From contig MU004236.1 of the NCBI GenBank assembly GCA_010405405.1, forward strand, positions 1,928,070 through 1,992,069: a DNA stretch of 64,000 bases. Direction: 5' to 3'. The notes under the pieces were generated by a model. The model saw only the letters and a program-made list of their open reading frames with translations, had not been told where the DNA came from and did not search any database. This DNA comes from Microthyrium microscopicum (taxonomy: Eukaryota). This document shows positions 26,601 to 51,675 of the stretch, piece after piece. The position numbers and the translations under genes are program-made. The stretch's first letter is position 1. Each line of letters begins with the position of its first letter.

Positions 26601-28469
26601 ATGGAGCAATCTCGTTTTGATGCTGATCTAATGGGTGAGGCCTTGCTCATGCGAGAAATCGCAGCAACTCTGGAGATAGACATTAAACGTGTCTCCAAGG
26701 CCATTACTCCCAAGGGGCAATCGACCAACATGAACACTACTCAGACTCAGTCGTTGTCTATACACCAGTCAACGACTTCTCTGAAGTCAGCAGGCCATAA
26801 GTCAGAGCGCGCACTCGACCCTTCAGCCGCGGCAATTCGCAAGCAAGAGAACAAAGAGTTTCCGGAACAGATAAAATCCCAGCTCGAGAACGAGCATAAG
26901 GAAAAGCTTCCTCCACCTAAAATGCCTGCGAAGCAAGGTCAGAAGCAGCCTGCTGCAGAATCGAGTTGTAAAGACATCCCCAATGGCCCCAAACAACCAA
27001 TCAAAGTCCCAGTAGACGACCCAGAAGAGATAGCTCACAAAAAGCGTTGGGGTGAGATCCTGGAAATCGAAGACAAACAAGTGATTGATCTCTTGTTCAA
27101 AGTCTTTTACTCGAAAGCTGTGATCACAGACAAGCGCCTGGGGGGTTTCAATCGAGTCTTCATAGCAGTGGTTATGCGACCATTTACTGCTCCAATTAAA
27201 GTTGCTGTGCGAATCAATATCCGAGCAACGAACGAAAGATGGACTAAACTAGATGCATTCAAGCTTCAACAGCAAGTTCGAACATGTAACTGGATACACA
27301 AAAAGTACAATCTTGCTCCCAAGGTCTGGTCGCACGATACTGGTTTCAAGAATAGCCTCAAGCGACCCTACATGATCATGAATTGTGTCGATGGACGTCC
27401 ACTGAACTATGAGTGGCATGCTCCTCTCGGTGCTTACGGCAAAAAGAAATTTCAAACCTTGGAAAAGAAGCAAGCACATATCATGAAGAGTGTTGCCCAG
27501 GCGGTCGCCAAATTGAGCGCGAAAACCTTCAATGCTGGAGGTACACTCTACTTTCCAAGCGATGATGCGACCAAAGACCCTCAAGTTGGTTCTTACTTCC
27601 ATGAAGGGAACCACGAGTCGGATTCCCCACCGTTCTTTACGCCTGCTTACTATTCGTGGACTGATGTTTTGGCGGACAATTGGGCTCGAATGAAATTGAA
27701 GCAATCGCGAAATAGCTCACCAGTACAACAGCTGAAAACTGATGGAGCTCTATGGGTAGTTGAAAAAGTCTTGCACACAATCTGGCCAGGCTTCAATGAA
27801 GCGTGCATTCACCGCCTTCGGAAGACATTATCAAGCAATCCACATCGATTCCAAACCTCGGAAGAGGTCATGAAAACACTACATCCAGCTACCAACGATC
27901 CCGACAGCGGACAATTTCATATCAAACATATGGATCTGGGCTACCAAAATATCATGATTGATCACCTTGGTAACGTAACCCAATTCATTGATTGGGATCT
28001 GATCAATACTGTCAATGAGCATGTTTGTTGTACTGCTTACCCAACTTGGCTTTCAGCAAATTGGAACTTCTACTACAAGGACCGGGTCGGCGACGGCCAC
28101 CCACACTTTCCTAAGAACTCCAAAGTCCACCTTGAGAGATACCGAGAATAGTACGCTCAGTCACTCCTTGGCGTGAAAGGCGAGGATAGCTCGGCTCGCT
28201 TGATTCGAGGATCCCATGTTCTAGGCAGCATAGTAGAACATGTAAGCTTCCATGATATTTCCTCATTGGTATGGCTTGCTGGACAGATACTATGCCACGC
28301 GTCGCTGAATATCGATGCTTCCAGCGACGCAGCAACCCAGCTTTTGATACTGATAGGCCATGAAGAAAGCACGAATCAGTCGGCTACGAAACAGAAAGTT
28401 ATGATGCAGTTCCAGAAATGGTGGAATGATCTATTGAAGCCAAAGAATATCCCCCCGGAGCTAGATTGA
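26601..28469 (+). CDS. APH-like phosphotransferase, paralog 4, interrupted by one in-frame TAG (28149-28151); 622 aa if decoded
   Basis: GGFNRVF, RPYMIM, VGSYFHEG, HMDLGYQNIMI, FIDWD. After YRE* the same frame continues YAQSL...SHVLGSI...LVWLAGQIL...KWWND, matching the C-termini of the paralogs. Confidence 0.75.
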
Positions 28470-30354
28470 AAACAGCTTTTGGCGTATCTGTTGCTTTTCG
28501 TACGCTCACAAACGAGAGAGAAATTATGCAAGCACAGATTCAGAAGTAGTCTGTTCTTGAGAAGAACTAATCGTCCTGCCTCCACACGTTCAAGCTACAA
28601 ATTTCAGACACTACGTTGTCCTTTGAGGAGTATCCGACTAGGTCTACATAGAGTGGAAATGAGAAGACTCAAATGTTTGCAGAGTGGTTCGCCCGAAGTT
28701 ATGAATAGGTTAGGAACACTAGAGGAAGGAATAAAAGTAAATGACAGAATCGTAGCACACAAGTTTCTTGCCCAAAAAAAAAACCATGTTCACGTCCAAG
28801 AGGGATATGTATCTTACCATAGTGTGAGCCGGTTGTAAGCCCATGCCGATAGCAATAAGTGTCTTGAAGCAGAGGATTAGTGACTATCTAGATCAAAACT
28901 AGAAGAGTAAAGTCGTCCAACCGTAAGCAGACATCATTGTCGGTCGTTCCATATTTCAAAAGACTATCATGATAAAGAGTAGATGTATTGTCTATTAATA
29001 GCAACACAAGCCTACATTTGTATTAGGTCTACATGATGAGAATCCAAGATGAAGTCAGCAGCTATGTGGTGTTTATGATATTGCTTCTATGAGGTAAAAT
29101 TGAAAATACTTTGGTGAGTTAGCTTTGCTTCCTGGACCTGATACACATCTTCTAAACAGAAAAATGTAGGTTTTAACCTTGTCCGAAGCCATTAAGCTAA
29201 AAAGATTAAACTTCTAAATATCAAAAAAGAATTGTGATACAGGCCCGAATCGATCGTGTTGAATGTGGAGAGGTGAGTTGTATTCCCTAGACACTCAATC
29301 AAGTGATGCGCCAAACTCGTCTCGGAAACTTGTACCAGCACTACCACCGCGAGGTGATGATTGGTACATCGGATTATGGATCAGAGTGAGAACTCCCCCA
29401 CGTAAAACCTGCTGGATAATCAAAAACTGACAACATTGTGAATATATACAGCGCATTATGCTAGTTCTGATTTCATAATGTACAACCCAAAAACTTCCAG
29501 CTGAAACCAAGCCAAGAGATAATCAAGCATATACTGTTGGTAGGTATTCTGACACTTAGAGCTATGTAGATGCTGGAATTCGATGATTACTATCGTCAGC
29601 TTCAAAATCGCCGTTCATCTTGTGAACTATGCGGTTTAAGTCGATAGATAAAACCTTTGGGAAAGATGATGATACTAGCACAAGGAGAGGAAATCAACCG
29701 TTTGTCCACTTCAAGGGCATGTAGTAGGAAGGAACAATGGCGATTGCTAATTACTTCCACGGCCTTGCTACAACAGCTCTCGTCCATCTCCCCGTCTACC
29801 ATCTGCCAGTGTTTTCATTAAGTCGCATCCGATTCGACACCTAGCGTACGACCAGCCTCCATCAAGCCTCCGTTTTCCATGGCTCAAGCGCTCTGAAGCT
29901 AACAACGTTGAGGCTGCCGACAACATGATTCATTTCACGGCCACAGCCGTCCCACTGTTGAGGTTCAGTATTGCATCTCCGGAGAGAGCCATTCCTACTA
30001 TCGTCCATTTCCGTGGTGGATTGTGTAACTCCCACACTGCATTTTCAGTCTCCCTGGTGAGATAGATGTCGACTGCGAAATGTTAGACAAAAAGGCAATA
30101 CTCGACACCAAAACACTAAAAAGTTGAACCATACTAGCAGTGATTAAATGGTTCAATGGAGCCGAAGGACGCCGAAGCATGTGCCCCCGAACCGGATTGA
30201 AGATAGCTGGACGGTGAGTAATGCAATGAGAATTTTTTAGAGTATATACCAATACGACCCCAGTAGGTATCAATGCTATCACCATCTATGAATCCCCATC
30301 ATTACAGCAACTGAATTAACCAACCAGCTACAAGCCTCCAGGTACAAACTTCAT

Positions 30355-32393
30355 CTAATCCTGCAGCACATTTTTCAGCGCCTTCTGGAAATCGAAGATA
30401 CCCATTCCAGTTACAGCATCCCACCCTTTAGTCGCGTTCCAGAAAGCACCGGGAATGATGGCCGAGCCATTGGTGGTTTTGCCATTTTGGTGATTAGTAC
30501 CATCACAGCCACGGGCAGCACCCTTGGTGATATCGACCAAGAACTCTTCTCCTTGGTCGTAGAGCCAGGGGTTGATGAAACCGAGCGTGGGCATGCCTTT
30601 TCGAAGACGGGCATCGTTGAGTAGACCGAGGATCGCGGCGACGACGGGTGATGCGGCTGAGGTTCCTCCACTTCCGGATAATATCCCTCCGTAGACGACC
30701 TTGTACACTGGATAGAGGGAATGGGCTGATACATCCGGGAATCCACGGCCGTTAGGATTGAAGTATCCGCCATCAAGGAAGGCACCGACTTGTTCACTTG
30801 GTAGCTCCCCAAACAGGTAATCGCGAACATGTCGTTTCTGGTATCGTGGTTGAGCGAAGTAGTAGGAGAAGCCGCCAGAGCTATCACGCCAGGCGATTTC
30901 GGGGCTAACACCTTCAGTACCGCCAATACTTGTCACCCAGGGGCAGGTACTAGGAAATTCGGGCAAAAATGTAGCATCATTGGATCCGTCATTCTTTCGG
31001 CAGTACGAACCTATGCCGGTGTCACCAGAAGACTCCAGGACCGAAATACCACGAAGTCCCATCATGGCAATCATGAGGCAAGTTCGAGCAGCATAACGAT
31101 AGGGAACAGTCTGTTCAGGCTCGCCATAAGAGTTGGAGATAACTTGAGGAAGTTCCGAATTCTTTCGGGAGAGGAGATATTGATAGTAGGGAACGTAGGG
31201 TTCGTTAGTATTCTCACTTGGAGTTGTTATTTCCAAATCTGGCATGAAGGGAGGTTTGCCAGCAGTGAGATATTCAAACACGGAGATGTTTGAGGGTGAT
31301 AGCACTCCAATAATGTTTTGGGCCTTGTTAGATTAGCATAAATTCATCAAATGACGAGAAGGGATCTTACGTCCAAACCTGCTTCGCCAGATAATTCGGC
31401 CGCCACGTTGGGATCCTGGTTGTTGACGGCATTATTTACGAATATTTTAGTCCAGTTTTTGTTGTTCAGTCTGAAATATTTCTCGTACAGGAAAACGTCT
31501 TCGTAATTCGCAGATTGGTTGAGGAAACTGCTAAATCCCACTCGACTCTTTGACGGTCCGGAAGTGCTATAATTCCCGATATTGTACATTTGCTTGAGAC
31601 AGCTGGGTCCTACGCCATTGTTACAAGAAGGATCGACGAAAAAAGGGCCTTTTCCAGTAAGAGCCTCTGGAGGTGCATTTCCTTCCCCAAAGCCAGATGG
31701 AGTATTTGGTGCAGGTGGGGGAGCCTGGCGGCGGTACAATGACCCAACGTGCTGCTTGCGATATGGGGCATCTGACTGGGTTCGGCTAGACTGGCGACGG
31801 ACTGATCTGGCGTGTGCCTTGTCTTCAGGATAGTAGGTAGGTGTGAATGCTTCTGTTTTGCCAAAGAAAGTGGTCGGATGGATGATGTCGATATGGTGAA
31901 ATACATCCTGCGGAACAGAATACTCCATGGTGCGGATCTTGCTGACTCCACGGCGTTTGTATTGTTTGAAGTTGGCGTTGAGGATACGGTTGGCGGTTTC
32001 CACTGTGGTTGTAAAGGAGACCCAGGTATTGTCAGAGTGGATTTTCGTGACGCCCTCAGCCTTGAGCCAGTTCATTACGGCAGTATTGGCTTCCTTGCTG
32101 GGCTGGACCAAGTGATTGACATCATCACGATCCATCCATTTTCCATAGCTCTTTGATTTGGGATTTGAAGTGTCTAAAAGCTTGGATATCATGGTATCTG
32201 TGTTTTGGAGAGTAAGACCGATCTGCAAGGTAATTTCTTCCTGGGGTACGAGTACATGAGATTGTGCTGCTGCCCAGCCCTGGGCTGCGAGAGAAGACTT
32301 TTGAACTGACTCTACCATTTTCATGTTGGTCGCTGCATTGCTCAAGGAGGCCAAAGTGAGCGCCAGCAGCGCCACTGAGCCTCGGAGAACCAT
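30355..32393 (-). CDS. Secreted tripeptidyl-peptidase / sedolisin (peptidase S53)
   Basis: Exons 32393-31371 and 31323-30355 (47-nt intron). Signal peptide, pro-domain, catalytic EAGLD, SSGDTG, GGTSAASP, GWDAVTG. Confidence 0.93.
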
Positions 32394-34011
32394 TGTTTTG
32401 ATCTAACTTGGTAAGAATTGCTATTGAATGGGAAAGTAAATAACAGGAAGGTAAGTAATGAAAGTGGTATGAAAAATAGCCGATGGTTAGAGGCCAAAGA
32501 ATGGAATAGCCCAGATACTGAATAATCTGGTGCTTGATGTTGATGTTGTTTTCCAAGAAGCGAGTGAGGTTGGAGCCAACAAACAAGATCCGAAATTAGG
32601 CTGTAGCTTCCAATCAAGGTTGACCAAGGTTGACCAGTACTCCCGCCTCACAAGAGTGGCGGCAATAGATGGAAGGAAAGAACGAGTGGTAGTGAAGTAG
32701 CAACGGAAATCGCGAATTGCAAAGATCAGACTTGAGGCAGGAATGTTCGGCTGAACCTGAAGCTTGGTCTCACACCTTAACTGGAAACACCGATGCAAAG
32801 TTAGAACTCTGAACCAAAAAATCCACAGACAAACAACCACAGTAGTAGCGCGACCACTACTTTAAGCACTCGATATAGCGCGGAGAAGCTAACCGGATGA
32901 CAGCTTGGTCCTGATTCCTACCAAATATAAACATCCTGTTCATAGACAAGAACAGAAAAAGGCGGTTGAGCTGTGCCACCTGCTCCGGGATACACTCCCG
33001 GCGCCGTTAGGGAACAAGCTGCGGGCAAACGAGCCTAATTGCATTCTAACTTCTAGGTCCGCGGTCTTGAGCATATATCGTCAATCAATGCGCGGGAAAT
33101 AGCCAATGGGGGTTTTCCTGTGCTATGGACATAGAGTGAATAGGAGCCTCCGAGTGCCCTATGTCGGGTTGACTGCGACATGGTTCATATTGCTAATGCC
33201 GCTTGGAGCATTTTTGTATCCTAAACCTTCGTGTGTCGTAGCGGAGGGATCCAGTAATTGATCAATCGCATTCCCCAAGTGCAGAGCGATTGGCATCATC
33301 TTGGCGGGTAATCTCGATGCGTGTGACATAGTTCGTTACCGCTTTGATGGGATCTAGGCGCATCTTGGGTAAAATCGCCTAGAGGCCCAGATATTAGGAT
33401 TATATCACTGGTGAGGATTCAGTACGACATAATTTTAACTCATTATAGCTCCTTGCAATGGTGATCTGGCGAGATCTACAGCTCAATCGTTCTGCACCCT
33501 AGACTGATTTGTTGAGTTGTCCATTGGAATTGTGCGGTGTAACCCGGAGCCTCGGTCTGATTGGGAGCCCTGAGAACTTAAAACATTGGCTCTCAAAACC
33601 AGCATTCCTAAGTAGTCAGAGACAACATAAGTACATGCCAGCTGCCGTAGCATGTTCAGTTCTGTAAGACGCTTACATCTAAATCAAGATTTTGTTGCTT
33701 GACTGTGCTAGGTGAGTCGATGGTTTCAGTGGAGGCTGCGTCTTGATGAGATCCAACAATGCCATCCTCTCTGATTGCGGAATATAATCAGTGCTGTGCG
33801 TTGGTTGTATCTGGGGTCAAGCTCACACCCTGATCTCCTAAACATGATGATCAGCCGCAAATTAGCAAATATCAGTCTCTCTGCGAGAACAGCCAGAACG
33901 TCAAAAAGGTGCGAAATGATGCTGAGCGCTAAATTTCTCTATTCGCACTACAGGAACTGTATTGACAAGGGAGGCCTATCATGTATCCGCCATTCGTTTG
34001 AGGGCGCGAGC

Positions 34012-34559
34012 TTAGTCCAACTTAGATGGGAAATTACCATTTTCTATTGATCAGTTAGCCTCCTTGACTGGAACCATTTGAGGAATCATGATATTTCACT
34101 GACCACGCTGCTCGTCCCATCGCTCTGTCCAACTGCTGTGGCACAAAGAGTGATACGCGAAGTAGAACTATAATCTTCCGTCAGTCCCAGTTGCAACTCG
34201 TTCTAGATCCAATTTTTCCGCGTACCTGCTTGCATGGCTTGAAGTCCTCGCCCTTGGCATTGATGCATTTGTGATAATCGACATAGTTTTGCCAGCAGTG
34301 CTTGGTCTGGTTGACGTTGGGGAAGCGGGCATCGAAGCCTTGAGATATCCAGTTAGTAAGTATGTCCAACCACCGCGAGATCAATGTGCGTTTTGTCCAG
34401 AGATGCGTGAAATCGGAAGCTTTAGAGACTCGACATACCAGCTATAACAGTGTTAGTTCAAATAGTGATCAGTATTGAGCTGTATATCAACGTACCTGTT
34501 ACCCACTTCCACGGCATGGTAACGCGCTCCTCAGAGCCCTCGGATCCTTCGTCAGACAT
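34012..34559 (-). CDS. COX12: Cytochrome c oxidase subunit VIb
   Basis: Exons 34559-34496, 34441-34439, 34338-34226, 34167-34104, 34043-34012. DARFPNVNQTKHCWQNYVDYHKC...SLC...WDEQRENGNFP. Confidence 0.93.
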
Positions 34560-34813
34560 CGTGAAGCTTTGTCGAGAAGTAGATGGGTGATTTATTGAGA
34601 CTTTGAACTGTCAAAGGTAAAGTTGGGTGTAATTGAGAGCAGTTGATACAGTCAAAAGAACGTAGAAGGTTGCCCGTTGACATTGCCGTAGTCGAGACGC
34701 TCGGACCATCTTGAACCTCTCCAACTTCAAATGTTCCATCCGAACCGCCATCAAAACTTCAATCTTCTTCAATCGACTCTACCAACCTCAAATCACCCTG
34801 ACGATTCGCCAAA

Positions 34814-35383
34814 ATGATCTCCGCTCAACGACCAATTGCTCGCGCAGCTCCCCAGCTGCTGGCTGCCGTCCGCCAGCGCTCTGCTGCTCGCCCGACCCAA
34901 TTCTTGAAGGCACAAACTCGGCTACTTTCTATGCGGCCAACTGGCCGGACTATGCGTGAAAAGGTCCGTTCAAGTCGAACTTGAGATGCTCAATTGAATA
35001 GATATGCTAACGAATGATGCTCAGGAGGACGAAAACCGAGGTACGAACACATATTGAGCTGGAAATATATCTAGACAGCGAACACTAACCATATTAAAGC
35101 ACACACTGTCACACAACGACTAGGTCAATGGAGAAAGATCCCAGTTGAATTGTACCCGATCGGTATGTAAAATTTTACGACATTAGTTGCTATGTGCTAA
35201 CTCTGCCCCAACAGGTGTTGTCCTTGCGTAAGCTCTTCCGCGATTCTGTGTTGACCACCAAACTAACGATATTGAAGCATTGCCATTGCTGCCGCCATAT
35301 ATTCTCTTTTCGCTAAGCTACGCAATGACAAGACCCTTCGTCTATGGCGTAAAGGCAAACCTGCACCTTCCAGCGACCACTAG
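34814..35383 (+). CDS. NDUFA4/MLRQ (B12D)-like small mitochondrial membrane protein
   Basis: Not in the ORF track. Exons 34814-34963, 35025-35040, 35100-35162, 35215-35227, 35278-35383, all GT-AG with CTAAC branch sites. Arg-rich presequence, then KIPVELYPIGVVLAIAIAAAIYSLFAKLRNDKTLRL. Confidence 0.8.
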
Positions 35384-35647
35384 AGTAGTTGAGGAGGGGC
35401 TGGTGTACTAGTCTATTGGCTTTGTTGTGGTGGTTTTGAACCGGCGTTCGATGTCGCCCTATTGCATCTGTATTGACAGTCTCTCGGCCGTCTCATACTG
35501 TAGATTTGTTCCAATAAAACCTATCGGTTGCCAACATGCCAAATTTGTATAGCCAAGCGATCAATCTGCTGTGGTGTTTGCGAGTGTAAATGTGTGCCAG
35601 CGATGGCCGATCCATGTGAAAGTCCTGTCCAGTAGCAGCAAAAGCGT

Positions 35648-36154
35648 TCATCTATCTTTCGGTCCGGCAACATCCAGCGCTTCCAGACCCTGCATTGGAT
35701 CCGGTTCAATTTCCGCGCCTTGTACCTCACCACCGCCATCCTTCTCACCCAACGTATCCACTTGAAATCCTTCCTACACGACCATTAGTCTCTCTTAATA
35801 CCCTTCCCATATCCAAGATTTCAAATAACTCACCTGCTCCCATAGTGCAACTTTACTACCCAGTCCCTCGCCCACATTCTTCACCGGTTTTGCTGGCGCG
35901 CACTTGATCACGCGCCCAAACAGCTCACTCTGGTCCATATTATCAATCGCTTCCCGCGCATCATCCGCAACTTCAAACTCAATGTATCCGAAGCCGCGGT
36001 GTGGATCGCGGTTTGACGGTAATTCGGGCTTGGGGAGCGAGATGTCGACGATGTCGCCAAAGGGAATGAAGGCGCTGTGGAGGGTTTGTGTGGTTACGGC
36101 GGGGTCGAGTCCTCCCACATAGACAGTCGATTTTAGACGTGCGGCGTCGGACAT
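35648..36154 (-). CDS. RRM-only protein related to the cyclophilin E (Cyp33/PPIE) RNA-binding domain
   Basis: Exons 36154-35834 and 35773-35648. RNP2 VYVGGL, RNP1 RGFGYIEF, AIDNMDQSELFGRVI. No PPIase domain. Confidence 0.85.
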
Positions 36155-36418
36155 TATGGAAGGTTAGGATGGGAGTTTGGTCGAATGGTTATGGTGGGGA
36201 TATTTGTGTCGAAGTTTTGGATGGTCGCATTCAACTTTTTGGGATCAGATGTGGTTAGTCAGCAGGAGTAGCGGGATTAGTCAGCCACCACTACAGTCTA
36301 TTTCACTTTTTGCTACTCTCGAAGTTCAAACAACAGTCTACGGGGATGTAATTGGCTTATCATTTGATATGGTACGTTGACTAAAACCACAGCGGTTTAA
36401 TGCAATCTGAGGTTCATT

Positions 36419-37246
36419 TCATGGTACGTCCTTACCATCGGCATAGAATTTGATATCGTTAGCAATTCTGCCGAGAAGTTCCGCCAGATCGTGTTCACTG
36501 CCCATAAACTCAATCTCCATATCCCGATGAATTATGGCAACAGCAACCCAGTTGGCCAAAGTGGTGGCCAGAGCGTGAGGACTAAGATACGCATCCTTTA
36601 GCATCTCGTTCGCTGCACGCTCTCCACAAGCATAGTGTGGTGCTATCGATTCGGGGAGGATATTGACTGGATCTAAGCTGGGCGTTATGAAGTTTACATC
36701 TAAACGCGCCAGAGACATTGCTTCATCGACATTTACTGACTTGGGAGCACCCCATCCGCACCGCAGAATGCGTTCTAATATGCTAGAGAAACGCCAAATG
36801 GAACGTAGGCCCTGGGGTGGAGCCTCTTCGAACCCCGACCGACCTTCTGTCGCAATACCGCTCATGCGAACAGTAACATTTAGCGCCATGCCATGAATGT
36901 TTGGCGCGGGCGGTACGAAAGTCCAGGTCGGCCAAAGCTCATCTTCATTAACGAGAAGTATATCCAGCTCTACTTTGGTATGGGTAATGTGGCGCCGCAC
37001 TTCGAGTGTATCCCTATGGAGTTGTTTGCAGGTCAAGAGTAGGGGAATGGGGTCGGTTGATGGGACAGTAGGTGCCCACAGGACGCCATGACTTTGAAGC
37101 CGCGAGAAATACTCGATATCGTTGAGTTCCACTCGACCTTTGCGATGAGATGCGCCTCCGTCCAGAGCAGCGATGTCGTGGTGGGTGATGGAGTATTTGA
37201 TAATGATGTCACGCAGCTCCTGAGGGAGAGACAGGAGAGGCGACAT
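36419..37246 (-). CDS. Hypothetical protein with F-box-like N-terminus
   Basis: 275-aa ORF beginning LLSLPQELRDIIIKY; LWPTW motif. The 3' end may be spliced. Confidence 0.7.
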   Translation of the reverse strand: MSPLLSLPQELRDIIIKYSITHHDIAALDGGASHRKGRVELNDIEYFSRLQSHGVLWAPTVPSTDPIPLLLTCKQLHRDTLEVRRHITHTKVELDILLVNEDELWPTWTFVPPAPNIHGMALNVTVRMSGIATEGRSGFEEAPPQGLRSIWRFSSILERILRCGWGAPKSVNVDEAMSLARLDVNFITPSLDPVNILPESIAPHYACGERAANEMLKDAYLSPHALATTLANWVAVAIIHRDMEIEFMGSEHDLAELLGRIANDIKFYADGKDVP

Positions 37247-37586
37247 CGGCTGAGTACTCTATGGTTCATTCGTCACAGAATCTTGAGAGTCCGGACTCTG
37301 GATAGATAAGTTGATGTTAAAAAGGTCGGAGGTGGAAAGCGTGCATCCGGGTTTGAGAAGTAGTAATAAGAATTTTATTGATGATGTCAATAAGGGGCTG
37401 CGACGCCATTGTCACTGCCGATATCCTGTAGCCGCCCGATTTTGAAACGTGCAGGATTAGAGTAACTACCTACCTAGTGCGGCGAGGACTAGAGTGACCC
37501 ACCTACAAAGGTAGTACAACTGTTGCTACTATTCATAAAACCCGCCTGCATTTCTCCTGTTCCTGTACTCTCAACTAGCCGTCACG

Positions 37587-39650: not shown

Positions 39651-40455
39651 TTAGGAAGATCCTGAAAATGGGGCCCCGAGCCTGAGCAGCCCATGAGTGA
39701 GCGAACAGACCTTGAGCAGATCTTGAGCAGCCTGAGGCCAGTTTGATCAGTCGTTGACTAGAACTTGAACAGACGGAGCGGCCAGAGCAGCACAGGATCT
39801 GAGCCGAAGCAGTATCGACGCAAGTATAGAAAGAAGTGATTAGGATAATGAATGGGAGTTTGAAAGTTTATGTAGCAAATCTCCATGGGGAGGGTATGTA
39901 CTGGGCCAAAGCATACCTACATACACAGGTAGCAGCGAGGGCCTCTAATCGCCTAATCCGAAAGAGGCAGCGCAATAGGACAGAGTTTACTACACTGAAA
40001 TCCGATATGCATGAGAAACTCATCTCTAGACAGTCCAGAGGGTGAAATACTCGCCTTTGTTACATACTTGAACAAAAAGAAGATTTTGAATTGTGGTTAA
40101 TGTGTAAGGTATGGAATATTTATGGTCGTTGAGTTTCAATGTTCCGGCAATCTGATTGAAGTTTGTGAAGTCAATCGTGAAGTATTGGAAATTTGGTGCC
40201 TGGTTGCCCTAGCCTGAAGCTGTTGCCTCAGGTTCGCCTTCTAAACCCTTAGGCAGCAAATGCCACAGTTGCTGAACGAATATGGAAGTGACGGCATGCT
40301 GTGAGTCTCAAGCGATCTGTCACGACACTACAGCTCTTGCGAAGCTCATTTTAGACTCGTCTCAATCCATCCCATCTCTCTTTATGCTCTTGCGTGGTTA
40401 TTTGACATTGATGTATCGTAATTCCACCTAGGTGCCCCATCGCAAGCTCATCAAC

Positions 40456-43400
40456 ATGGTTCGACTTCGCGAAATTCCTAGGACAGCGGCCTTTGCTTGG
40501 TCAACTGGTGCTGCCTCTCCTCAACTGGTCACTGGAACCAAAGCTGGAGCTGTCGATGCTGAATTCTCCAATGAGACTGCGCTTGAGCTCTGGAACCTTG
40601 ACTTTGAAAACCCAAGCGCTGGTGTTGAGTCCAAGCCAGCTGCCTCCTTACCCGTCGACTCGAGGTATTATCATTCTGAGTTATATCTGGCTTAAGGGCA
40701 AGGTTCTAATGCATTGATAGATTTCACGCGATTGCCTGGAGCACACCTACTGATACCTACAAATCTGGAATCATTGCTGGTGCTTTAGAATCTGGCTCAT
40801 TGGATCTCTGGGACACCTCCAAGCTTGCATCTAATGGCAGGTCAGTACTACCCATCTGCAATTCTTGTACTCTACTAATCGAAGCAGTAATGCCACAATT
40901 GCCAGATCTACCAAGCACAGCGGTGCAATTAAAACCCTTCAATTCAACCCACATCGAGATGACCTTCTTGCGAGCGCCGGCGTCAAAGGTGAACTATACA
41001 TTACCAACTTGACCAATCCTAGTGATCCGTTCAGACTAGGTACAGGCGCAGCTCGAGCTGATGACTTTGATGCATTGGACTGGAATAAAAAGGTGGCGCA
41101 TATTCTGGTAACGGGAAGCAATGGAGGCTTTGCAACAGTCTGGGACGTTCGGAACAAAAAGGAGTCATTAAACTTGAACAACTCCGGCCGTAAACCAGTT
41201 AGTTCGATAGCATGGGATCCTACAACCCCTACGAAGTTGGCCACTGCAACATCATCTGATCAGGAACCGGCGGTGTTCGTATGGGATCTACGAAACTCCA
41301 ATGCCCCTGAGAAGACGTTGAGATTGCACGATCAAGGCGTCCTATCTTTATCATGGAGTCAGTGGGATCCGCGATTACTACTTTCTTGCGGCAAGGACAA
41401 CCGCACTGTCTGTTGGAACACGCACACTGGAGAGGCATTTGGAGAATTCCCCATTGTCACAAACTGGACATTCCAGACCAGCTGGAATCCACGTCATCCC
41501 GGCCTTCTCGCTACAGCATCTTTTGATGGCAAGATCTCGATACAGACAATTCAAAACACCAATCCGGATAGCTCAGATTCGGCCGCTGATCAAGCTCTTG
41601 ATGGCGCTGATTTCTTCGCCAGTGCCGGCACTAGACCTCAAGGTGTTTCATTTTCTCTACCAATCGCTCCAACTTGGTTGCAACGCCCAGTCAGCGCCAC
41701 GTTTGGATTTGGCGGCAAATTGGTCAAGGTTGGACCAGTCGACGCTACCTCGAAAACATCAAAAATCAGTATTTCTACCTTCGTGTCCGATCCATCGATT
41801 GGCGAATCGTCTCAAAAGTTTGAAGAGACTATTAAGGGAGGCGATCTGAAAGGGTTTTGCGAAGGAAAGATCTCGGATGCCAAATCGGACGACGAAAAAG
41901 CAGACTGGACGGTTATTGAAACACTTATATCCGGTTCTCGCCTCAAATTAAAGGAGTACATCGGATTCGCGGAGGAAACGCAGCAAAATGGCGATATCGT
42001 CGCTGAGAAACCCAAAGCTGCAAGTGGAGATGACGCTTCCTTCTTCGACAATGCTGAGGGAGATGATAACTTTCTCTCCAATCTGGCTGCATCAAAAGGA
42101 GCGAAAACCAATAATCCATTCAATGTCTATACTGGGTCCGAGTCCGACTCTGACAAGAGCATAACACGGGCCTTGATACTGGGAAACTTTGAAGACGCAC
42201 TCGATGTCTGTCTGAAGGAAAAGCGTATGTCGGATGCTTTTATGATTGCCATTTGTGGGGGTGATAAATGCATCGAGAAGGCCAAGGCTGCATACTTTAA
42301 ACAAGTATCTGATGGTCCCAACTATCTACGCCTTCTTGCTTCATTTTCGGGCAAGAATCTTTGGGATGTTGTCTATAACGCCGATCTCAAGGAATGGAAG
42401 GATGTGATGGCAGCTATTTGCACATATGCCAATGAAAAAGACTTCCCCGATTTGTGTGAAGCGCTGGGAGATCGGCTGCAAGACCAAACCACAGCCGAGC
42501 ATAAAGATGCTTCTTTCTGTTACCTTGCTGGGTCCAAACTTGAAAAGGTCGTCACCATATGGCTTCAAGAACTAAGAGATAAGGAAAAGTCGTCGATCAA
42601 GGAGGGTGGGGAAGAATCGAGCTTCTTCTCCATTCATGCCAACAGCTTGCAAGAATTTATCGAAAAGGTCACGATCTTCCGTCAAGTCACGGATTTCCGC
42701 GATGGGGAGGCTTCAAAGACAGAAGATTGGAAGCTGGCACCCTTATACGCCAAATACGCTGAATATGCCGACATTCTAGCTTCTCAAGGACATCTATCTA
42801 GCGCCGAACGATATCTTGATCTTTTGCCGCCTCGATATCCTGCTGCAGAGGTCTCAAGAAACCGCGTAAAAAATGCTACTCGCAAAGCTGCTGCTACAAA
42901 CCAACGCGGTGGTGCAACCACTACTACAGCCCAGCGAGGACAGCGCGTCGTCCAAACCTTCCAACCTGCAGCTCCTGCAAACAACGCATATGCTCCGACA
43001 GGTCCTTCAATACCACAACCATCAGCCTTTCAACAACCCGCAACATTCCAGCCAGCTGCCGCTCCAACAAGAAATGTGTACGCGCCAGCTGGTATGCAGC
43101 AGCCTCAACAGGGCTACCAGCAACCAGGCGGGTATCAACAGCCATATGGCTCCGCGCCCTATGGTGGTTTTGGAGCACCACCTCAGCAACCGCCTCCTAC
43201 TTCTGCTTCCCCATCTGTCCCGCCTGCCTTTCGAGCATCTGACCTCCAACAGTGGAATGATACTCCTGACTTTGGACCGAAGGCCATTCCGCGCAGAAGC
43301 ACACCAAGTGTCCAACCTCCAACTCCATCTCCATATGCTCCTCAACAAGTGGTCTCACCAGGTCAGGCAAATGCCTATGGTGCTCCTCCACCAAAGTCAG

Positions 43401-44485
43401 CAACCCCTCTCCCTCCTCCACCTAAAGCTGGAGCTCCCCGTATAACATCTCCGCCCAACGTTCCTCTCGCTAGTCACGAGCCAAGACCAACATCAGCAGC
43501 AGCAAACTCTTATGCACCTCCAGCTGGAATTCCTGCAGCAGTGCAATCACACATCACTACTCCACGAGGAGCTTCTCCTTACAACGCACCGCCTGCTGGT
43601 GGACCTCCCAGCAATCGTTACGCGCCCGCCCCAGGGTCACAGCCATCGGCGCCGACTGGGTATGCTGGAGGACCTCCTCCACCAAGACAGCCAGCCGCGT
43701 CGCCGTATGCTCCACCGCGAACCAGTTCGTATGGCGCCGCCCCTCCGGCACCTCAAGCTTATGGCGCTGCTCCTCCACCACCAGCTGGCTCATATGGAGC
43801 CCCACCACCAGGAGCTGCTTCATATGGTGGTCCACCCCCTCCAGTAGCCTCTCAAAACGTGCCACCACCTGCTCCTCCACCAAAGGGACCTGCGCCACCT
43901 CCACGAGTCAATCCGCCGCCTCAAGGACCTCCTGCATCACGAGCGATCAATACACTACCATCGCCACAACCTTCGGATTCGCGCCCAGGGTCACAGAATG
44001 GGAGCAAGCAACTTCCGTCCACACCACAGTATCGTCAGTAGTATATGCCCCCATTTAATGCATACCCACTAACTCGCCACAGCGTCTGGTGATCGTAGTC
44101 ATATTCCGCAACATTCACAGCCAATTTTTGAGATCTTGAATGGCGAGATGCAACGCATCAAGGCCAAAGCACCGGCCGCCTACCAACAGCAGGTCATTGA
44201 CACGGAAAAACGCCTGGGCATCCTCTTTGACCATCTGAACAATGAGGATTTGCTAAGACCAGACACAATTGGGCAGATGCAGCAGTTGGCGAGCCAATTA
44301 CAAGGCCGACAACACGCTCAGGCTACACAGTTGCTAACGGAAGTAATGACCACAAAAACGGATGAAGGCAGCAACTGGATGGTAAGCTCCCTAGACTTCT
44401 CCTAGGTGTTAATATGGAAACTAATATCATGCTACAGGTTGGTGTCAAACGACTGATCATTATGAGTAAGGCAACTCCACTGTAG
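40456..44485 (+). CDS. SEC31: COPII outer coat protein Sec31
   Basis: Exons 40456-40664, 40721-40840, 40888-44033, 44083-44381, 44438-44485. [18 protein letters not shown]40 repeats, FGFGGKLV, Pro-rich linker, LFDHLNN...WMVGVKRLI. Confidence 0.96.
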
Positions 44486-45054
44486 GACCAAGTTACCAAC
44501 AGGCCGACAAAGTAAATCTTAGATGAAGGTAGTAAGTAGCTGCAGCACAGATCATGAATTAAAAGCGCATTGTATTTTGATGAATCATACAATTCTACAT
44601 TTTGGTCAATCGAATGGGCAGTTTACATGCAGAGGTAGTCGAATGCAGCACACCCCTGTCGCACGCTAACCTCACGTCGTATATCGAGCTCTACCAAGCT
44701 CCAGAGCAGATCTTAGCTGTTATCGCCGACATAGTTACGCCGATGTATTCGGACTTTGAATGGTAGAGATTCCCGCTGATGGGTCCATCATATTTGAAAA
44801 CCGGCATGTCACCCCAAGATCGGACAGTCGGTTGATCCTAACATCCGGAATCCTCAAATCAGGCACACTATCTCCCCTTAACACCGTTCTTCTCTCGGAG
44901 AAGCTTCATTGAACGATCCACTGTTTACATTTTATGGCGCTTCAGCTAAATATAAATATGGACCAGCCCTCCGATTTAGAAACAGACTCAAAAACAACTA
45001 ACTGCTCAATTCATCCTGATCCCATCACACCATTCCACAATCCCTAACCCAACA

Positions 45055-46076
45055 ATGTCTCCCGCTCCAGCCCTCCAGAAAGTCGCCATCGTCGGCGTAA
45101 GTAACATCCAGCTTCACTAAAGACATCAATCTCTAACATCTTGTAGGCCGGTGGCCGTGTAGGCGGCGAGTTCGCCAAAGCCCTCCTCAAAACAGGAAAC
45201 CACACCGTCACAGCCATCACCCGCGCCGGCTCCAAATCTAGCCTGCCAGACGGCATCCAGACCATCGAGGTCAACTACGATGACGAAGAGTCCATCGTCG
45301 CCGCCTGCAAAGGCCAGCAATTCCTCGCCATCACCCTGGGCGTCACTGCACCACCCGATCTCCATGGCAAAATCGTCAAGGCTGCTGTGAGCGCTGGTGT
45401 CAAATACATCATGCCCAACGTTTACGGATATGACCCCGAAAACATCAATCTCACGTCTGGAAATAGCTATTCCGCCATGTCTGCGGGACGCTTGAAGGAG
45501 GTCACCAGTGCCGGCGGTACCTACATTGCACTTACATGCGGTTTCTGGTATGAGTGGAGTTTGGGTCTGGGCATGTACGGCATTGACATTGCAAACAAGA
45601 CCGTCGTTCTTATGGACGATGGCAAGACGAAGATCTGCACAAGCACTTTCCCACAGTGTGGTCGTGCCTTTGCGGCGCTGCTGAGTCTGCCTGAGTCTGG
45701 CGCGTCGCCGTGTCTGGCTGACTGGAAGAATAAGCCGGTGTATATGAACAGCTTCCTAGTCAGTCAGCGGGACATGTTGGATAGTGTGAATCGTGCGAAT
45801 GGTACGAAGGATGAGGATTGGACTATCACGCATGAGGGCAGTGAGCAGCGTCACAAGGATGCGATGGAGAAGATGAAGACTGGGGATCGCAGGGCATTTG
45901 CAACGGCAATGTATTCGCGAATGTTTTTCCAGAATGGCGATGGAGACTACACGAGTAGGGGTTTGGCGAATGAGGTGTTGGGATTGCCAAAAGAGAATTT
46001 GGATGAGGCCACGAAGGTGGTTGTTAAGATGGTTGATAAAGGGTACTCGTTGGCTACTGTCGGTATGGGCTCTTAG
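45055..46076 (+). CDS. NmrA/isoflavone-reductase-like NAD(P)-binding oxidoreductase (CipA-like)
   Basis: Exons 45055-45096 and 45147-46076. Rossmann motif KVAIVGAGGRVG; CGFWYEWSL. Confidence 0.88.
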
Positions 46077-46200
46077 ATATGTATAGAGACAGATCACTTA
46101 AAGTGAGCTAGCTATATCCCGCAGGAGTAATTACAACATGTTGCAAGAAATTGAGGACTTGCTGGGCACAACACCCAGAAACTTCTTACTATTGTATTCA

Positions 46201-46999
46201 CTATCGTCGCTTAACATCCTCCATATCATCACCAAACACTTTCCGCTCCAAACTGCACCTTAAAACCCTTCTTCCCTTGATAATGTTCTTCAAGCCGTTA
46301 TCATCCCTATCATAGTAGATTGACCAGGTATCCTTATCTTCCTCCACAGCCACAAACCCTTCCCATTCCTCCAGCATCAGCCCAAGTTCATCGTCAGTCC
46401 AATCCCATGGCCCTAGAATGTGACCATCGGCAGCTGCTCGACTGCCATATTTGACTTCAAAAGTGTTTCGATCGATATATATCCAGTTCAGTGTGGGTGG
46501 GTCTTCTGATATGGTACTGACCAATCCTCGGAATGGTGGCGGTTGATTGAGTCGCTCGAAGATTGAGTTGGATGTAGCAGCTGTTGGTTGGAAGTCGAGG
46601 AAAAACCCGTTAAATAGATGGGGTGGCTCGTCGGCTCCTGGTACTGGTATTGGATCGTCTGTTTTTGGGTCGACTTTGGTGAGATACAGCTATTTTCAGA
46701 TGGTAAGTCTAAGATTTTTGAGGAGATATGTTGGAAAAGTTTGATGTCTTTTACATAGTAACAACAATATAGAAGTGGAGTTTACTTACTTTTTCATCTC
46801 TCAAAACAACTATACTGTTGTCCACTTGATCCCGCTTTCGAGATTCTGCATCACAAAAGACTTCAATATGGAAGTCCTGCATTCGATGATCATCTCGGTC
46901 TTCTTCTCGGTCTTCTTCCAGCTCTTTATTATGTCTGATGCCTTCCGCGGTTGCCACTGAAACAGGAAGTCCAAGGAGTCCCAGTAATTCGAGAACCAT
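46201..46999 (-). CDS. Hypothetical fungal protein
   Basis: Exons 46999-46790 and 46689-46201 join three ORF fragments: GLVSTISEDPPTLNWIYID, GPWDWT, WEGFVAVEE, YYDRDDN. Confidence 0.8.
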
Positions 47000-47457
47000 T
47001 TTCAACTCTGGTTAGACTAGTACTTGCAAGGTTGCTTTAGTCTGCGCTCAACTCCCAAGGGTCTCGTCGTTGGTGTTGCTAATGGCATCAGACCAACCAG
47101 GGAATATTTCATTGAGGTTATAATCTCATGTGATCTCTGCTGATCCAAAAAGCTACCTTGATATGCTTCCAGACGTTATTTTCCTCTCACAAGGAGATTG
47201 TGATCCAAGATTCTGTTGCCGAGGGCTGGTTGGCGATGATGTCATTCCCATTTTCCGTGACACCAAAACACCAAAGGCATCGTGACTTTCTCTTATTCTC
47301 AGAAAAGCGCAAAAGTGTAGAAAAGGTTCATCAAAAAGTTATACATGCTAGCTCCTAGATACGGACATAGAATAGTTTGACGGCTGGATTAGGACGCGAC
47401 AAGCTAGGCATAATGATTAAGTATTGTATTGTATAAGGACCCAGTAAGTTCTGAACA

Positions 47458-48526
47458 TTATAATTTTAGGATTGTCTGTACATGAGCCCATCGCTTTGAT
47501 CTCATCGGATCGAGCCGTTGCAACTCTGAAAGCCATTGACCTACCTCGTCTTTAGGCGTCGAGACATAGGCTGCGAAATCTGCGTGGTATTGTAGCAGAG
47601 ATTGATATATCCATTTACAGTCATCATAATCCTCAAGAATTTCTTTGATTCTCTCAATCTCTTGCTCCAGATATCTTTGCCTATCCGAGTCAAGCAAGTC
47701 AGTGATGATGAGGTCGGCCGCAGGATATGCACAATCCAAAGTGCTCATAAGGTATTGATGGTAGAACCATGCCGACTGATTGAATGGATCGATCAGGGCC
47801 TCCTGCATCATATCGAGTTCCTGATCAAATAGTTTCCGCCTATCAGTGTTCGATGCGTTACGCTCGCTCAAAAGACGTGGAATGAGCTTGCTTCGATAGT
47901 GAAGGGCCGAAAAGTTCTGCAACGCCTTCCGGATCATTTTGGTGGTATATTCAAACTCGGATTCCACCATTGACACTTGCTGCAGTTCTTCTAGTTGCAA
48001 AATGACATGTCTTCGATAGTCCCAGCCATGAAAGTTACGTTCGTCTCTGGTCAACATCTTACCAACCAAGCCAACCTCCTCCTTCCAGAACTGAACAGCT
48101 TGATCAAGCTCCAGGTGTGTTTTTACTTGATCCAAAAGCCACATACGATAGTTCCAGATCCAGTAGCATTTGGGATATTGGACCATCAGAGGAACGAGGA
48201 ATTGTAGATCTGAGGCGATGAGATTGGCAGGGGGGGCACCTTCGCGGTTAAAGAGTGCCTGGAGTACGCGACGTCGATAATTCCAAATGGTGTAATACTC
48301 TGGATTCTTTGCGAGCAATTTTGAGATTGCGTTTAGTGTATTGGATGAAAATTCTGGGGCGCGCATTTGTTCCTCGACTTGCGCCACCAAGCCGCGATAG
48401 TCCGCAATGTTCCTCCTTTCCTTCTCCAGGTCGCGTTCCCGCCCTCCCGAAACTCGAGGTATTCCATGCTACAACGCGTCAACTTTTCATCCATTCGCAT
48501 CGATCAGGGAGAAAACTCACACTCAT
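47458..48526 (-). CDS. BET4: Rab geranylgeranyltransferase (GGTase-II) alpha subunit
   Basis: 6-nt first exon ATGAGT (48526-48521), intron, exon 48468-47458, giving MSHGIPR. PPTA repeats NPEYYTIWNYRR, PKCYWIWNYR, RNFHGWDYRR, NFSALHYR. Confidence 0.92.
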
Positions 48527-48843
48527 GGCTCTGTCTTTGATGAGCTCGATTCTTTTGTTGATGGAAAATGATGGACTTGCAAGAGCGAGGATACGAGAGG
48601 AGGAAAGGATCAAGGAGGGTTCGCAGCAGGCAGCGACGGCTTGATGGTCGACGGCAACATCGAACCACCATGTCAGGTCATCAAAATCTCTCGAATCTCA
48701 TCTTCACTTCTCTCTCCTATACTTGGATGTGATCCATACACTTATTATTCCGAGCAAATAGTACTAACCTATCTAGCAACCGATGCCTGGCCTTCCATCC
48801 ACCACCCTCGCGCCCAGTCTCTGGCCATTGCCTCCGTATAGCT

Positions 48844-51675
48844 ATGTCATCTGAGTCTCTCAAGATCCGTCATCGTAGCGTTGCAGCTCGATCATCATTC
48901 GAAAATGAGCCGGCTCTATCTCTTTCTTTTGACTCTAGCCCGCCCTCCGCCAGGCATAGCCTGGACTCTGTCCCAACTCCATCAAGCAATCACATTCGGG
49001 ACGACAAAGCATACTTGAGCCTTCACAGCCGTCATGTCTACCTTCCCATCGGCCAGAAGAACTTTCAAACAAAGGTTTATCGCGTGTTCAGTGAAAGCAT
49101 TTTCGATCCACTCCGCGGAACACTTACCACAATTCCGGTGAATCCTAACAATCGTACGAAGGCAATACTCTGTGATCAACTAGTCAAACCTATTCCACAA
49201 TTTGACGGCCAGTCTGGGGACACTACTCCGTCTGGAGAGTCATCTTCATCCTCTCGATCATCCATTTTCAAACAGAGGATATCACATAAACCACAAACAG
49301 TCAAACATCACGAGCGTGTTGAGCTGAGGTCCCCATCCAATGCCACATTCGCTACTCCACCAGTTGAGTTAGAGGATCCAACGCCATCAGCACAAGCATC
49401 ACCGGCCATCAATGCTTTCCCGTTCCCGAGCACAGGAGAACTACCCAGCCCACTGACGCCCTTCTCTACACGCCTTTCAAGCTCACCTCTTCGTCCAAGC
49501 CAAAGACATACGCCTCGATCGTCCAGCTCACGTCTTTCCACACCCACGCGGACACCAGACCGTTTCATTCCACTTCGGCCAATTAGGAGCGCGAGGGATA
49601 GCTATGAAATCAGTAGGTCTCCGGAAAGACTCACTGACCAGGAGAAAATTGTTCGCTCCGTGGAAGTCGCTCCTGATCCCTTCAGTCGGAGATTGCGTGC
49701 AAATGCTGCTCGTCTAGTATCGCGAATCAGGGGAACTCCTTCCCATCCTATCAATCTTGGATCTCGAGGTTCCAACAGCGTAGTCACGCTTCGCAGAAAC
49801 TCTACTGGATCTGCTGCCCGAACTTTTAGCCCCGGTGCCATATAGAATGTTGGCGGCATGAACGCAGCATCAAGTGACTCAGTGAATAGCGTTTCAGATG
49901 GCAGAGGAGGCTACATGACAAGTGGTAGCAATGCTCCCTTGTATTCAGCCAATTTCTTTGCTTCAACAGACCCTGCTACTGAACGCGACATGCACGAGCG
50001 AAGGCTTGCTCTAGCGCTGGATATCGATCCCTCCACTCGTTTGTTCAGTCCCTCATCTCCCTCGTCCGGCAGTGGATCGCTTGATAATAGCCCAGAGCAA
50101 GGGCTTGGTGCATCCGGAAAGCTTGTTTGGAAGAACAACGAATGGAACAGAGAAGGATCAATTACATGTAAGTTGTGCCCTTCGAGCGATAATTCTCTGA
50201 CTAATCAGATGACAGCACCTCTACGAGAAGAGAAGAAAAAGAAAGCGGTACCAATTATACCTTTTAGATAAGTTTCTTCGATGTTTTTGAGACTTTTACT
50301 GACCTTGTCTACAGTGCTTAATGCACCGGCTCTGAGAGATGATTTCTATTGCTCCGTATTGGCCTATTCTCATTCAGCAAAGGTTCTGGCAGTCGGTCTC
50401 GGTAACACGGTTTATTTTTGGAACGAATCCGGAGGTGTTGAAAGTCCACCAAATCTCAATCCACCAAGCAGTTCCTACGTTTCTTGTCTATCCTTCTCAT
50501 CACGAGATGGAGGAAAGGGTATCCTAGCCGCTGGTCGATCCAATGGTCATGTCGTTCTACATAGTCCTCATGAGAGTCAAACTCGCTTCGACATACATCA
50601 GCCTAGTCCGATCTGCTGTGTAGCATTTCGACCAACCTCAAGAAGCAAAGACTCCATGCGGGACCGTTATATTTCGGTCAAGACAGAAGACCTTCTGATT
50701 GGTGATGAGGCGGGGCACGTCTACTTTTACTCTGTTGAGTGGCCAACAGAGACTGAGCGAGACTTGTTCGACTTTCGCGGCTGTGTGACTTTGATAGTTC
50801 GTCTGACGATGCACACTCAGCAAATTTGTGGCATTGCATGGGCCCCGGATGGAGACACCTTTGCTACCGGTGGTAACGATAATCTATGTCATCTTTGCGA
50901 TACTCGACGAGTCATAGCTGAAGGCAAACCTGATACAGCTCATCTCACTTCATCATCCTTCCCCTCATTCAACGTGGACAGGCAAGTCGATCTTACCTTA
51001 CCACACTTCAACATCTCCGCCCTATTTGCCCGCCACTGCTTCACTGTAGCAGCGGCTGTAAAGGCCATTGCCTTTTGTCCCTGGCAACGCGGGCTCCTAG
51101 CCATTAGTGGAGGCTCCAACGACCGACGCATTCATTTTTTCCACACTCTCTCTGGCGCAACTCTTGCCACTGTAGATTGTCATGCTCAAGTCACCAGTCT
51201 TGTCTGGAGTACCTCGCGGCGCGAAATCGCTGCTACTTTTGGCTTTGCCCAGCCCGAGCATCCTTACCGCATTGCCGTTTTCAAATGGCCCAGCTGCGAA
51301 ATCGTTGTCAAGATTCCTTGGTTCGATGAGCACCGTGCCCTCTTTGCCATTCCTTACCCAGGCGGTCCTAATATCTCCCGGTCCCATGAAGACTCGGAGC
51401 TAGATGCACGTGGACGCGATCGCCGTGGGCGTGCACGCTCTCGCTCAGGACTCTTTCGTTCGCGCGATTGGCGACGTGAGGGTGGCTTATGGTGGAGCCG
51501 CACTGAGGAGGAAGGCTGCTTGGTCGTAGCCACCAGTGATTGCAGCATCAAATTCCACGAAGTCTGGGCTGAGGAGCGCAGGGCTACGGGAGAGCGAGGG
51601 GGGATGTTGGGTGGAAGTGATATCTTGGATCTGATTCACGGAATTGAGCGAGATGATGGTGAGATTATCCGCTAA
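48844..51675 (+). CDS. AMA1: Cdc20/Fizzy-family APC/C activator, meiosis-specific Ama1-like; in-frame TAG at 49843-49845 and a putative AT-AC intron
   Basis: C-box TPDRFIP, IPFRVLNAPALRDDFY, WD40 (TGGNDN, AVKAIAFCPW, GGSNDRRI), C-terminal IR tail. Exons 48844-50167, 50216-50267, 50313-51675. The three ORF-track pieces share one frame. Confidence 0.85.
50268..50312 (+). other. Putative non-canonical AT-AC intron (45 nt)
   Basis: AG|ATAAGT ... TACTGAC ... CTAC|A. Removal restores F-R-V-L-N-A-P. Confidence 0.65.

Follow-up and report, generated by a model that had tools for sequence, protein, structure and literature searches.

Can a stop codon that is written into the genome serve as a sexual-stage lock in a fungus outside the classes known for messenger RNA (mRNA) editing? 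This question is raised by a stretch of 64,000 nucleotides of the leaf-litter fungus Microthyrium microscopicum (assembly GCA_010405405.1, contig MU004236.1, positions 1,928,070-1,992,069, forward strand; below referred to as the window), which includes the gene for AMA1, a meiosis-type anaphase-promoting complex/cyclosome (APC/C) co-activator. A first-pass annotation, made from the letters alone, had connected four features of the window in a possible unlocking programme: two genes that are each locked by one in-frame UAG, a non-canonical intron, and a transposon mutated by repeat-induced point mutation (RIP). Both TAG triplets are present, 21,694 bases apart, at 28149-28151 in a gene for a divergent APH-like phosphotransferase (below: gene 1) and at 49843-49845 in AMA1 (the coordinates of all features are collected in Table 1). 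The stop codon in AMA1 turned out to be well founded and that in gene 1 is most simply the 5' end of an intron. On the whole the proposal was partly supported, in that the window holds one well-founded candidate for restorative editing outside the Sordariomycetes and Pezizomycetes, and no programme.

The AMA1 gene and its interruption

The gene shows the traits of the Ama1/Cdc20/Cdh1 co-activators, i.e. a WD40 propeller, a C-box (DR[FY]IP) in the N-terminal part and a C-terminal IR tail. The CDC20/Fizzy WD40 family (PF24807) was recovered on residues 2-360 of translation P0002 (E 2.1e-57; 195.1 bits, just short of the curated cut-off of 200) and also stands in the precomputed Pfam annotation of the public model P0157. 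The subfamily-specific N-terminal region matches proteins that carry the name AMA1 at NCBI (of Cryomyces, Dothidotthia, Cucurbitaria, Boeremia and others) as well as Bcama1, and by these matches the gene is taken to be an orthologue of AMA1 and not of CDC20 or CDH1. The definitions of the C-box and IR motifs and the role of the IR tail are known for the Cdc20/Cdh1-type co-activators. In that family the C-box is required for APC/C activation, and C-box and propeller are needed in one chain, so that neither half alone should activate the APC/C. The TAG falls between the two, with the C-box on its 5' side and the propeller and the IR tail on its 3' side.

In the public annotation AMA1 is split into two adjacent models because the genomic UAG interrupts the gene: BT63DRAFT_456425 (P0270, 375 aa) ends at the TAG, and P0157 (named 'WD40 repeat-like protein', 574 aa) has Met339 as its first residue. 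Both halves of the gene match these M. microscopicum models at 100%, and the translation of gene 1 read through its TAG (P0001) is 100% identical to a third, NCBI model BT63DRAFT_440860, outside the stretch that this model skips. On the strength of these matches the window is assigned to M. microscopicum (Dothideomycetes, Microthyriales), which confirms the earlier impression of a Dothideomycete. BT63DRAFT_456425 begins at an upstream ATG near 48671 and seems to skip a short stretch near 48730-48780, as judged from its unmapped sequence.

A stop codon at an invariant tryptophan

In frame, the AMA1 TAG is flanked by ...SPGAI and NVGG.... By an exhaustive HMMER search with exon 1 and by two word-based searches, 331 distinct homologues were recovered, not counting the readings of the window itself or the three models that are public for its genome. 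The site is covered by 323 of them, the other eight beginning past it. Trp is present in 319 of the 323 and Phe in one, within a badly aligned stretch. The remaining three are reading frames from metagenome or Logan contigs (P0005, P0025 and P0096, with 72, 41 and 36% identity to the query) whose last residue is precisely 333 and which all close with ...GAI, like the ...GAI-TAG-NVGG of the window. Hence AMA1 displays what is expected of an editing target, an in-frame UAG where the orthologues carry a sense codon, and the coincidence of the TAG with an invariant Trp, as it had been annotated, is beyond chance.

According to BLAST, the nearest relatives of P0005, P0025 and P0096 are each other, the window and P0006. 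In a quick maximum-likelihood tree (IQ-TREE, with SH-aLRT support only) of 33 rows that were picked by hand from the matches, the window and P0005 form a pair (SH-aLRT 96) that is sister to the W-bearing P0006 (96), and P0025 and P0096 form a second pair (97) with end branches of 0.46 and 0.86 changes per column. Both stop-bearing pairs, P0006 and P0009, which also carries W, are placed together in a single clade of poor resolution. Because P0006 is sister to the first pair, the tree suggests that the stop arose either twice, or once with a reversion. In both pairs the stop outlasted speciation, and the 330-odd codons upstream of it are still open. Downstream, the Microthyrium gene has 574 intact codons, which share 63% identity with the closest of the relatives that carry W.

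Metagenome contigs were scanned with the AMA1 alignment for the DNA of relatives; 85 stretches matched, none of them a relative. Likewise, the degenerate pattern G-A-[IVM]-TAG-N-V-G-G was found at 21 loci, none of which encodes an AMA1 relative (tblastn). A further five homologues that reach the C-terminal end (P0231, P0232, P0233, P0238 and P0266) start just past the site, and the same split of the AMA1 model may be hidden in other genomes.

Reads over the AMA1 site

Sequence runs from three studies cover the site. Run X5 is not on record as RNA and was treated as such because its contigs carry splice joints over several genes (GT..AG and CT..AC joints across the SEC31-like gene and other neighbours). 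One X5 contig of 3,968 nt spans 48521-50167 with 0 other letters and no gap, this piece ending at the last base of exon 1, and its consensus at 49844 is A, i.e. the TAG is unchanged. The depth of X5 in the bin 49810-50476 was 84.8 versus 98.5 on either side, which equals 98.5 x (667-93)/667 and fits the loss of 48 + 45 nt, i.e. both AMA1 introns, from the 667-nt bin. In X6, a low-depth run of another study, 49504-50020 is covered with 0 differences, and X1 and X4, from which the assembly probably derives, agree fully with the window over the site.

Since the contigs from X1/X4, X5 and X6 all keep the TAG, it is real DNA and it is transcribed. The AMA1 mRNA is made, both introns are removed from it and the UAG is kept in the X5 consensus. 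Edited molecules that are in the minority would not be visible in a contig consensus, and X5 is of unspecified tissue; therefore its reading neither shows nor excludes stage-specific editing.

The AT-AC intron

The non-canonical intron of the first-pass annotation is intron 2 of AMA1, the last base of which, 50312, is also where the annotated span ended. It is real and belongs to a rare but known class. The intron contains an in-frame TAA (50269-50271); the public model P0157 joins ...IPFR/VLNAP... over it, as it joins GSIT/S/PLREE over intron 1; and its removal from RNA is indicated by the depth drop of X5, which corresponds to 93 nt over both introns. Because an A is repeated at both ends, the boundary can be moved one base to the right (TA..CA). 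With its AT..AC ends and an otherwise major-spliceosome 5' site and branch it resembles the U2-type AT-AC introns, and no difference from these was found in the accessible parts of the papers that describe them (PMC1557818, PMC7072748). AT-AC introns constitute 0.019% of the annotated fungal introns (PMC7072748, Table 1).

A part for the intron in an unlocking programme is not supported: the RNA contig that holds the unedited TAG already lacks it, which makes it no stage lock. The meiosis-specific splicing of yeast AMA1 (Cooper et al. 2000, via PMC10776026) provides a case of the same gene being gated to meiosis after transcription. Microthyrium differs from it in that both introns are already out in the RNA contig that keeps the stop, and splicing is therefore not the gate of its AMA1.

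A-to-I editing as the favoured key

We propose that the genomic UAG that replaces the invariant Trp codon of AMA1 would be a maintained gate and not decay, because the upstream frame stayed open through much divergence and the co-activator needs both sides of the stop. The gate would be opened during ascus development by adenosine-to-inosine (A-to-I) editing of UAG to UIG, which is read as Trp. We regard this as the most likely explanation and give it about an even chance, since no way back to Trp is known other than UAG to UIG. In that case a Dothideomycete clade would have mRNA editing. Somewhat more tentatively, there might be a Microthyrium-centred clade of Dothideomycetes with its own sexual-stage A-to-I editing, which would be either a third independent origin or much older than the Sordariomycete ancestor, and in which AMA1 would have been locked convergently at the invariant Trp, close relatives switching between TGG and TAG as they do in Sordariomycetes.

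The precedent comes from Fusarium graminearum, of which Hao et al. (2019) reportedly described the premature-stop-correction A-to-I editing of PSC33/FgAMA1. This published editing-dependent gene, of which the Microthyrium gene had rightly been called the counterpart, needs UAG-to-UGG editing and is one of 71 genes so edited in perithecia only, with an editing level that climbs from 0 to 63% in the supplement table (PMC10776026). At the FgAMA1 editing site six independent origins of a stop are described within the Sordariomycetes, and most such TAGs are derived from TGG (PMC10776026). The two genes share the Ama1-type co-activator family, the single in-frame TAG and the recurrence of the stop among relatives; moreover, the FgAMA1 transcript is present in unedited form outside the sexual stage, to which the unedited Microthyrium transcript may be likened. 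They differ in that Microthyrium belongs to the Microthyriales within the Dothideomycetes, where editing is a candidate only, and in that its stop has Fusarium-disfavoured letters at -2, +2 and +4 and no hairpin loop. The UAG-to-UIG step itself would be supplied by Tad2-Tad3-Ame1, the U at -1 being built into the codon, but the contact between Ame1 and Tad3 is considered a Sordariomycete innovation and the editing of Pyronema an independent origin (PMC11087585, PMC10962958). The machinery consists of short isoforms of Tad2 and Tad3 and of an Ame1 (DUF726) that can bind Tad3, and a Met-Val pair of Ame1 is reportedly essential for this binding.

In the available literature fungal mRNA editing is placed in the Sordariomycetes, with a separate origin in Pyronema and negative results for one Eurotiomycete and one Leotiomycete, and which fungal classes edit is called an open question in reviews (PMC11156358). 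The taxonomic novelty of the Microthyrium stop is softened, because it was already noted by Qi et al. (2024) that several editing sites carry premature stops in single species of other classes too, with editing there yet to be determined (PMC10776026); in the accessible part of the supplement table of that paper neither 'Dothideomycetes' nor 'Microthyrium' was found. A literature search on A-to-I editing and Dothideomycetes found no report of editing in the class, and among the matches listed for M. microscopicum none was on editing by its title.

Various observations weigh against editing of the AMA1 stop: i) no A-to-G change was seen, the sole RNA-like run reading A at 49844, which is weakly negative at most; ii) P0005, P0025 and P0096 are known as truncated frames only, such that their stop could be TAG, TGA or TAA; iii) the editing site of FgAMA1 (FG3G26160) is given by chromosome position only (chromosome 3, 5461540), and the Trp site of Microthyrium is at most its putative equivalent; iv) the Microthyrium site lies outside a predicted hairpin loop, in a fold that is no better than those of shuffled sequences (z 0.93); v) -2 A, +2 A and +4 T, half of the six flanking letters, are depleted in F. 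graminearum, the other three (-1 U, +1 G and +3 A) being preferred ones; and vi) the Ame1-Tad3 interaction is said to have originated in Sordariomycetes, and Aspergillus nidulans and Botrytis cinerea were examined and editing was not found (PMC11087585, PMC11156358). The neighbour preferences behind the fifth point, i.e. U at -1, A or G at +1, +3 and +4, C or U at -2 and depletion of A at -2 (PMC9600606), were measured in Fusarium and Neurospora, not in Dothideomycetes.

The first-pass annotation had also pointed to the A-U-A-G-N-A context that the two stops of the window have in common. This context is indeed present in both (GAA-TAG-TAC in gene 1, ATA-TAG-AAT in AMA1) and has little evidential weight: the U at -1 and the G at +1 belong to the codon, so that only -2 and +3 are free, which gives a chance of about 1 in 16, and the support is weak also because A at -2 is depleted, not preferred, in F. 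graminearum (PMC9600606).

Other explanations for the AMA1 stop

It is rather improbable that the stop is bypassed by translational readthrough, in which a near-cognate tRNA at the UAG would yield a low dose of the full-length protein from unchanged RNA, the stop acting as a dosage damper. The conservation of the stop would suit such a role, as would the unedited mRNA in the sole RNA-like run and the fact that the editing machinery is not known from Dothideomycetes; however, a damper would need no particular place, yet the stop is found in four lineages at the same codon, which is that of a residue kept as W in all but four of the covering homologues. Readthrough of UAG in yeast inserts mainly Gln, Tyr or Lys, not Trp, and the readthrough product would therefore lack the invariant residue. 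To our knowledge, the AAU-GUU downstream of the AMA1 stop is none of the contexts that promote readthrough, which also counts against this explanation. No tRNA gene was detected within the 64-kb window, and the window therefore has no bearing on the question of a suppressor tRNA.

Comparably low is the probability of a split or shortened gene, of which the N-terminal 333 residues with the C-box and the C-terminal 574 residues from Met339 would be made separately, or of which only one half would still matter. That the public annotation has exactly these two models and that an ATG occurs five codons past the stop is what such a gene would show, but opposite Met339 the homologues listed carry residues other than Met (mostly S, P, A or T), and the need of the family for C-box and propeller in one chain argues against two products, as does the one contig that covers both halves (though it is no proof of a single transcript). 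Re-initiation after a frame of 333 codons is, in addition, inefficient in eukaryotes. That the stop marks a dying pseudogene, a mutation specific to the strain or an error in sequencing, as a single nonsense codon in a gene that is dispensable for vegetative growth might suggest, is highly improbable in view of the TAG in contigs of three studies, the RNA-like run included, of the three relatives that stop at the same residue with at least 330 upstream codons open at 72%, 41% and 36% identity, and of the intact downstream codons with their 63% identity to the nearest W-bearing relatives.

The TAG of gene 1

The TAG of gene 1 is in frame between open stretches of 516 and 105 codons. The sole match in the homologue search was the gene's own model, BT63DRAFT_440860. 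Pfam APH (PF01636) was matched with E 0.043 and 14 bits, below the cut-off of 23.2, and a feature score of 0.98 to Ascomycota APH clusters in the Atlas (TM 0.51-0.55) provides leads only; the HxDxxxxN and IDWD motifs are presumably of the APH type. The PDB sequence search gave a chance match only (E 0.38), and the AlphaFold2 model, made without alignment and with the TAG as W, was unusable (mean pLDDT 35, pTM 0.22).

Because the TAG coincides with the intron donor of the public model, gene 1 is not established as UAG-locked. The TAG is probably the donor of an ordinary GT-AG intron (TA/GTACGC). The donor GTACGC is the same as that of the RNA-verified intron 34168-34225, a CTGAA is present 16 nt before the CAG acceptor, and the skipped 174 nt have a codon score of -0.103 per codon, which falls at the 4th percentile among 248 coding windows with a mean of 0.076, and near the non-coding mean of -0.083. 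The argument from the CTGAA is weakened, since the species tolerates branch variants: the 100-nt RNA-verified intron at 46690-46789 (minus strand) has no CTRAY branch, the nearest variant being CTTAC. An intron is also less readily reconciled with the 174 nt being a multiple of three, free of stops apart from the straddling TAG (only 10.6% of the 57-codon windows in unmasked DNA are stop-free) and longer than all 12 introns listed (45-100 nt).

These same properties of length and frame would favour a lock on both genes, in which case the 174 nt of gene 1 would be coding, the public intron an annotation device, and Trp restored by editing. In addition, the A of the TAG lies within a weak 9-nt hairpin loop, although the RNA fold around it is no better than shuffles, and an intron with a stop can occur together with editing, as seen in FgBUD14 (PMC11156358). 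We nevertheless consider a lock on both genes unlikely, given a donor identical to an RNA-verified one, the near-consensus branch 16 nt from the CAG acceptor and the non-coding-like codon score, and given that there are no homologues that show Trp at the site. Moreover, the gene models would seem to be transcript-informed, because the AMA1 model of the same annotation has the AT-AC intron, and this counts against a lock as well. Frames that stay open after true stops occur in the window by chance. In other parts of the window TAG serves as a normal stop: the J-domain gene ends at one (8638-8640), and straight after it, in the same frame, 134 codons are open (8236-8640, minus strand) with a translation that looks non-coding; after gene 1's own TGA 122 codons are open. 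A retained-intron or truncated form of gene 1 takes the weight that is left beside the intron and the exonic lock.

The RIP block

The RIP signature is real. Over the 3.6 kb of the AT-rich block (58201-61800) TpA/ApT is 1.52, (CpA+TpG)/(ApC+GpT) is 0.32 and the GC content is 23.5%, as compared to 0.67, 1.34 and 48% in the rest of the window; the thresholds for RIP are a TpA/ApT above ~0.89 and a (CpA+TpG)/(ApC+GpT) below ~1.03. The repeat nature of the block rests solely on a relic of a MULE transposase, which was translated with X at every stop. Both indices and this relic liken the block to transposons hit by RIP, from which it differs in that its transposase match is below the Pfam threshold. 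As RIP is pre-meiotic, the block tells of past sexual cycles only, which is unsurprising for a species that is known from its asci. A programme that links the four features is thus not supported, as one of the two locks is well founded, the other is most likely the donor of an ordinary intron, the AT-AC intron was already removed in the sole RNA-like run, and RIP bears on past sex only.

Other features of the window

The neighbouring genes are all ordinary: they encode a dual-specificity phosphatase, a J-domain protein, a sedolisin, an ankyrin protein, a SEC31-like protein, an NmrA-like protein and a prenyltransferase alpha subunit. The other single in-frame stops of the window were scanned as well; the one at 5689 sits in non-coding-looking sequence, and the remaining ones are off-frame or antisense to known genes. 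Two long open frames on the plus strand, 16957-20127 (1,057 codons) and 22994-25837 (948 codons), matched no Pfam family at E 1e-5.

At 34043-35833 (minus strand) the depth of the RNA contigs is 3,500-5,200 versus ~100 in the neighbours, and three joints skip 156, 133 and 113 nt and keep 2, 13 and 11 letters, respectively, between their sides, a pattern that resembles micro-exons or complex splicing of a strongly expressed gene. Within this region (34274-34289) a contig of run X6 with depth 147 has three A>G and one T>C differences and jumps to 42656 and 44358. It probably stems from a conserved gene of another organism in the sample, and not from editing.

Table 1. Positions of the described features within the window
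Feature	Position	Strand	Remark
Gene 1, divergent APH-like kinase-fold phosphotransferase	26601-28469	+	public model from 26631
Gene 1, in-frame TAG	28149-28151	+	annotated intron starts at its G
Gene 1, candidate intron (174 nt, GT..AG)	28151-28324	+	residues 517-575 of the read-through are absent from the public model
AMA1 (meiosis-type APC/C co-activator) gene	48844-51675	+	ATG 48844, TAA 51673-51675
AMA1, exons 1 / 2 / 3	48844-50167 / 50216-50267 / 50313-51675	+	joints agree with public model P0157
AMA1, C-box DRFIP, upstream of the TAG	49558-49572	+	translation and DNA
AMA1, in-frame TAG (residue 334)	49843-49845	+	motif R-x-x-S-x-G-A-[VI]-W-N-V-G-G
AMA1, intron 1 (48 nt, GT..AG, branch CTGAC/CTAAT)	50168-50215	+	RNA-like contig piece ends at 50167
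AMA1, intron 2 (45 nt, AT..AC, U2-type signals)	50268-50312	+	ATAAGT 5' site, ACTGAC 10 nt from the 3' end
AMA1, C-terminal I-I-R (IR tail), downstream of the TAG	51664-51672	+	translation, ends ...EIIR
AT-rich block with RIP dinucleotide signature	58201-61800		dinucleotide indices
MULE (Mutator-like) transposase relic, weak	59272-59526	+	PF10551, E 7.8e-5, 23.5 bits (cut-off 27.6)

Implications

A stop that is kept at the invariant Trp of AMA1 across several Dothideomycete lineages offers a cheap and precise site at which to test for editing in this class. In practical terms, automated pipelines will split AMA1 in related genomes in the same way. If the AMA1 stop is indeed opened by editing, the view of the Ame1-Tad3 machinery as an invention of the Sordariomycetes would be reopened, and the case for AMA1 as a recurrent trade-off gene, one that is repeatedly gated to meiosis, would be strengthened.

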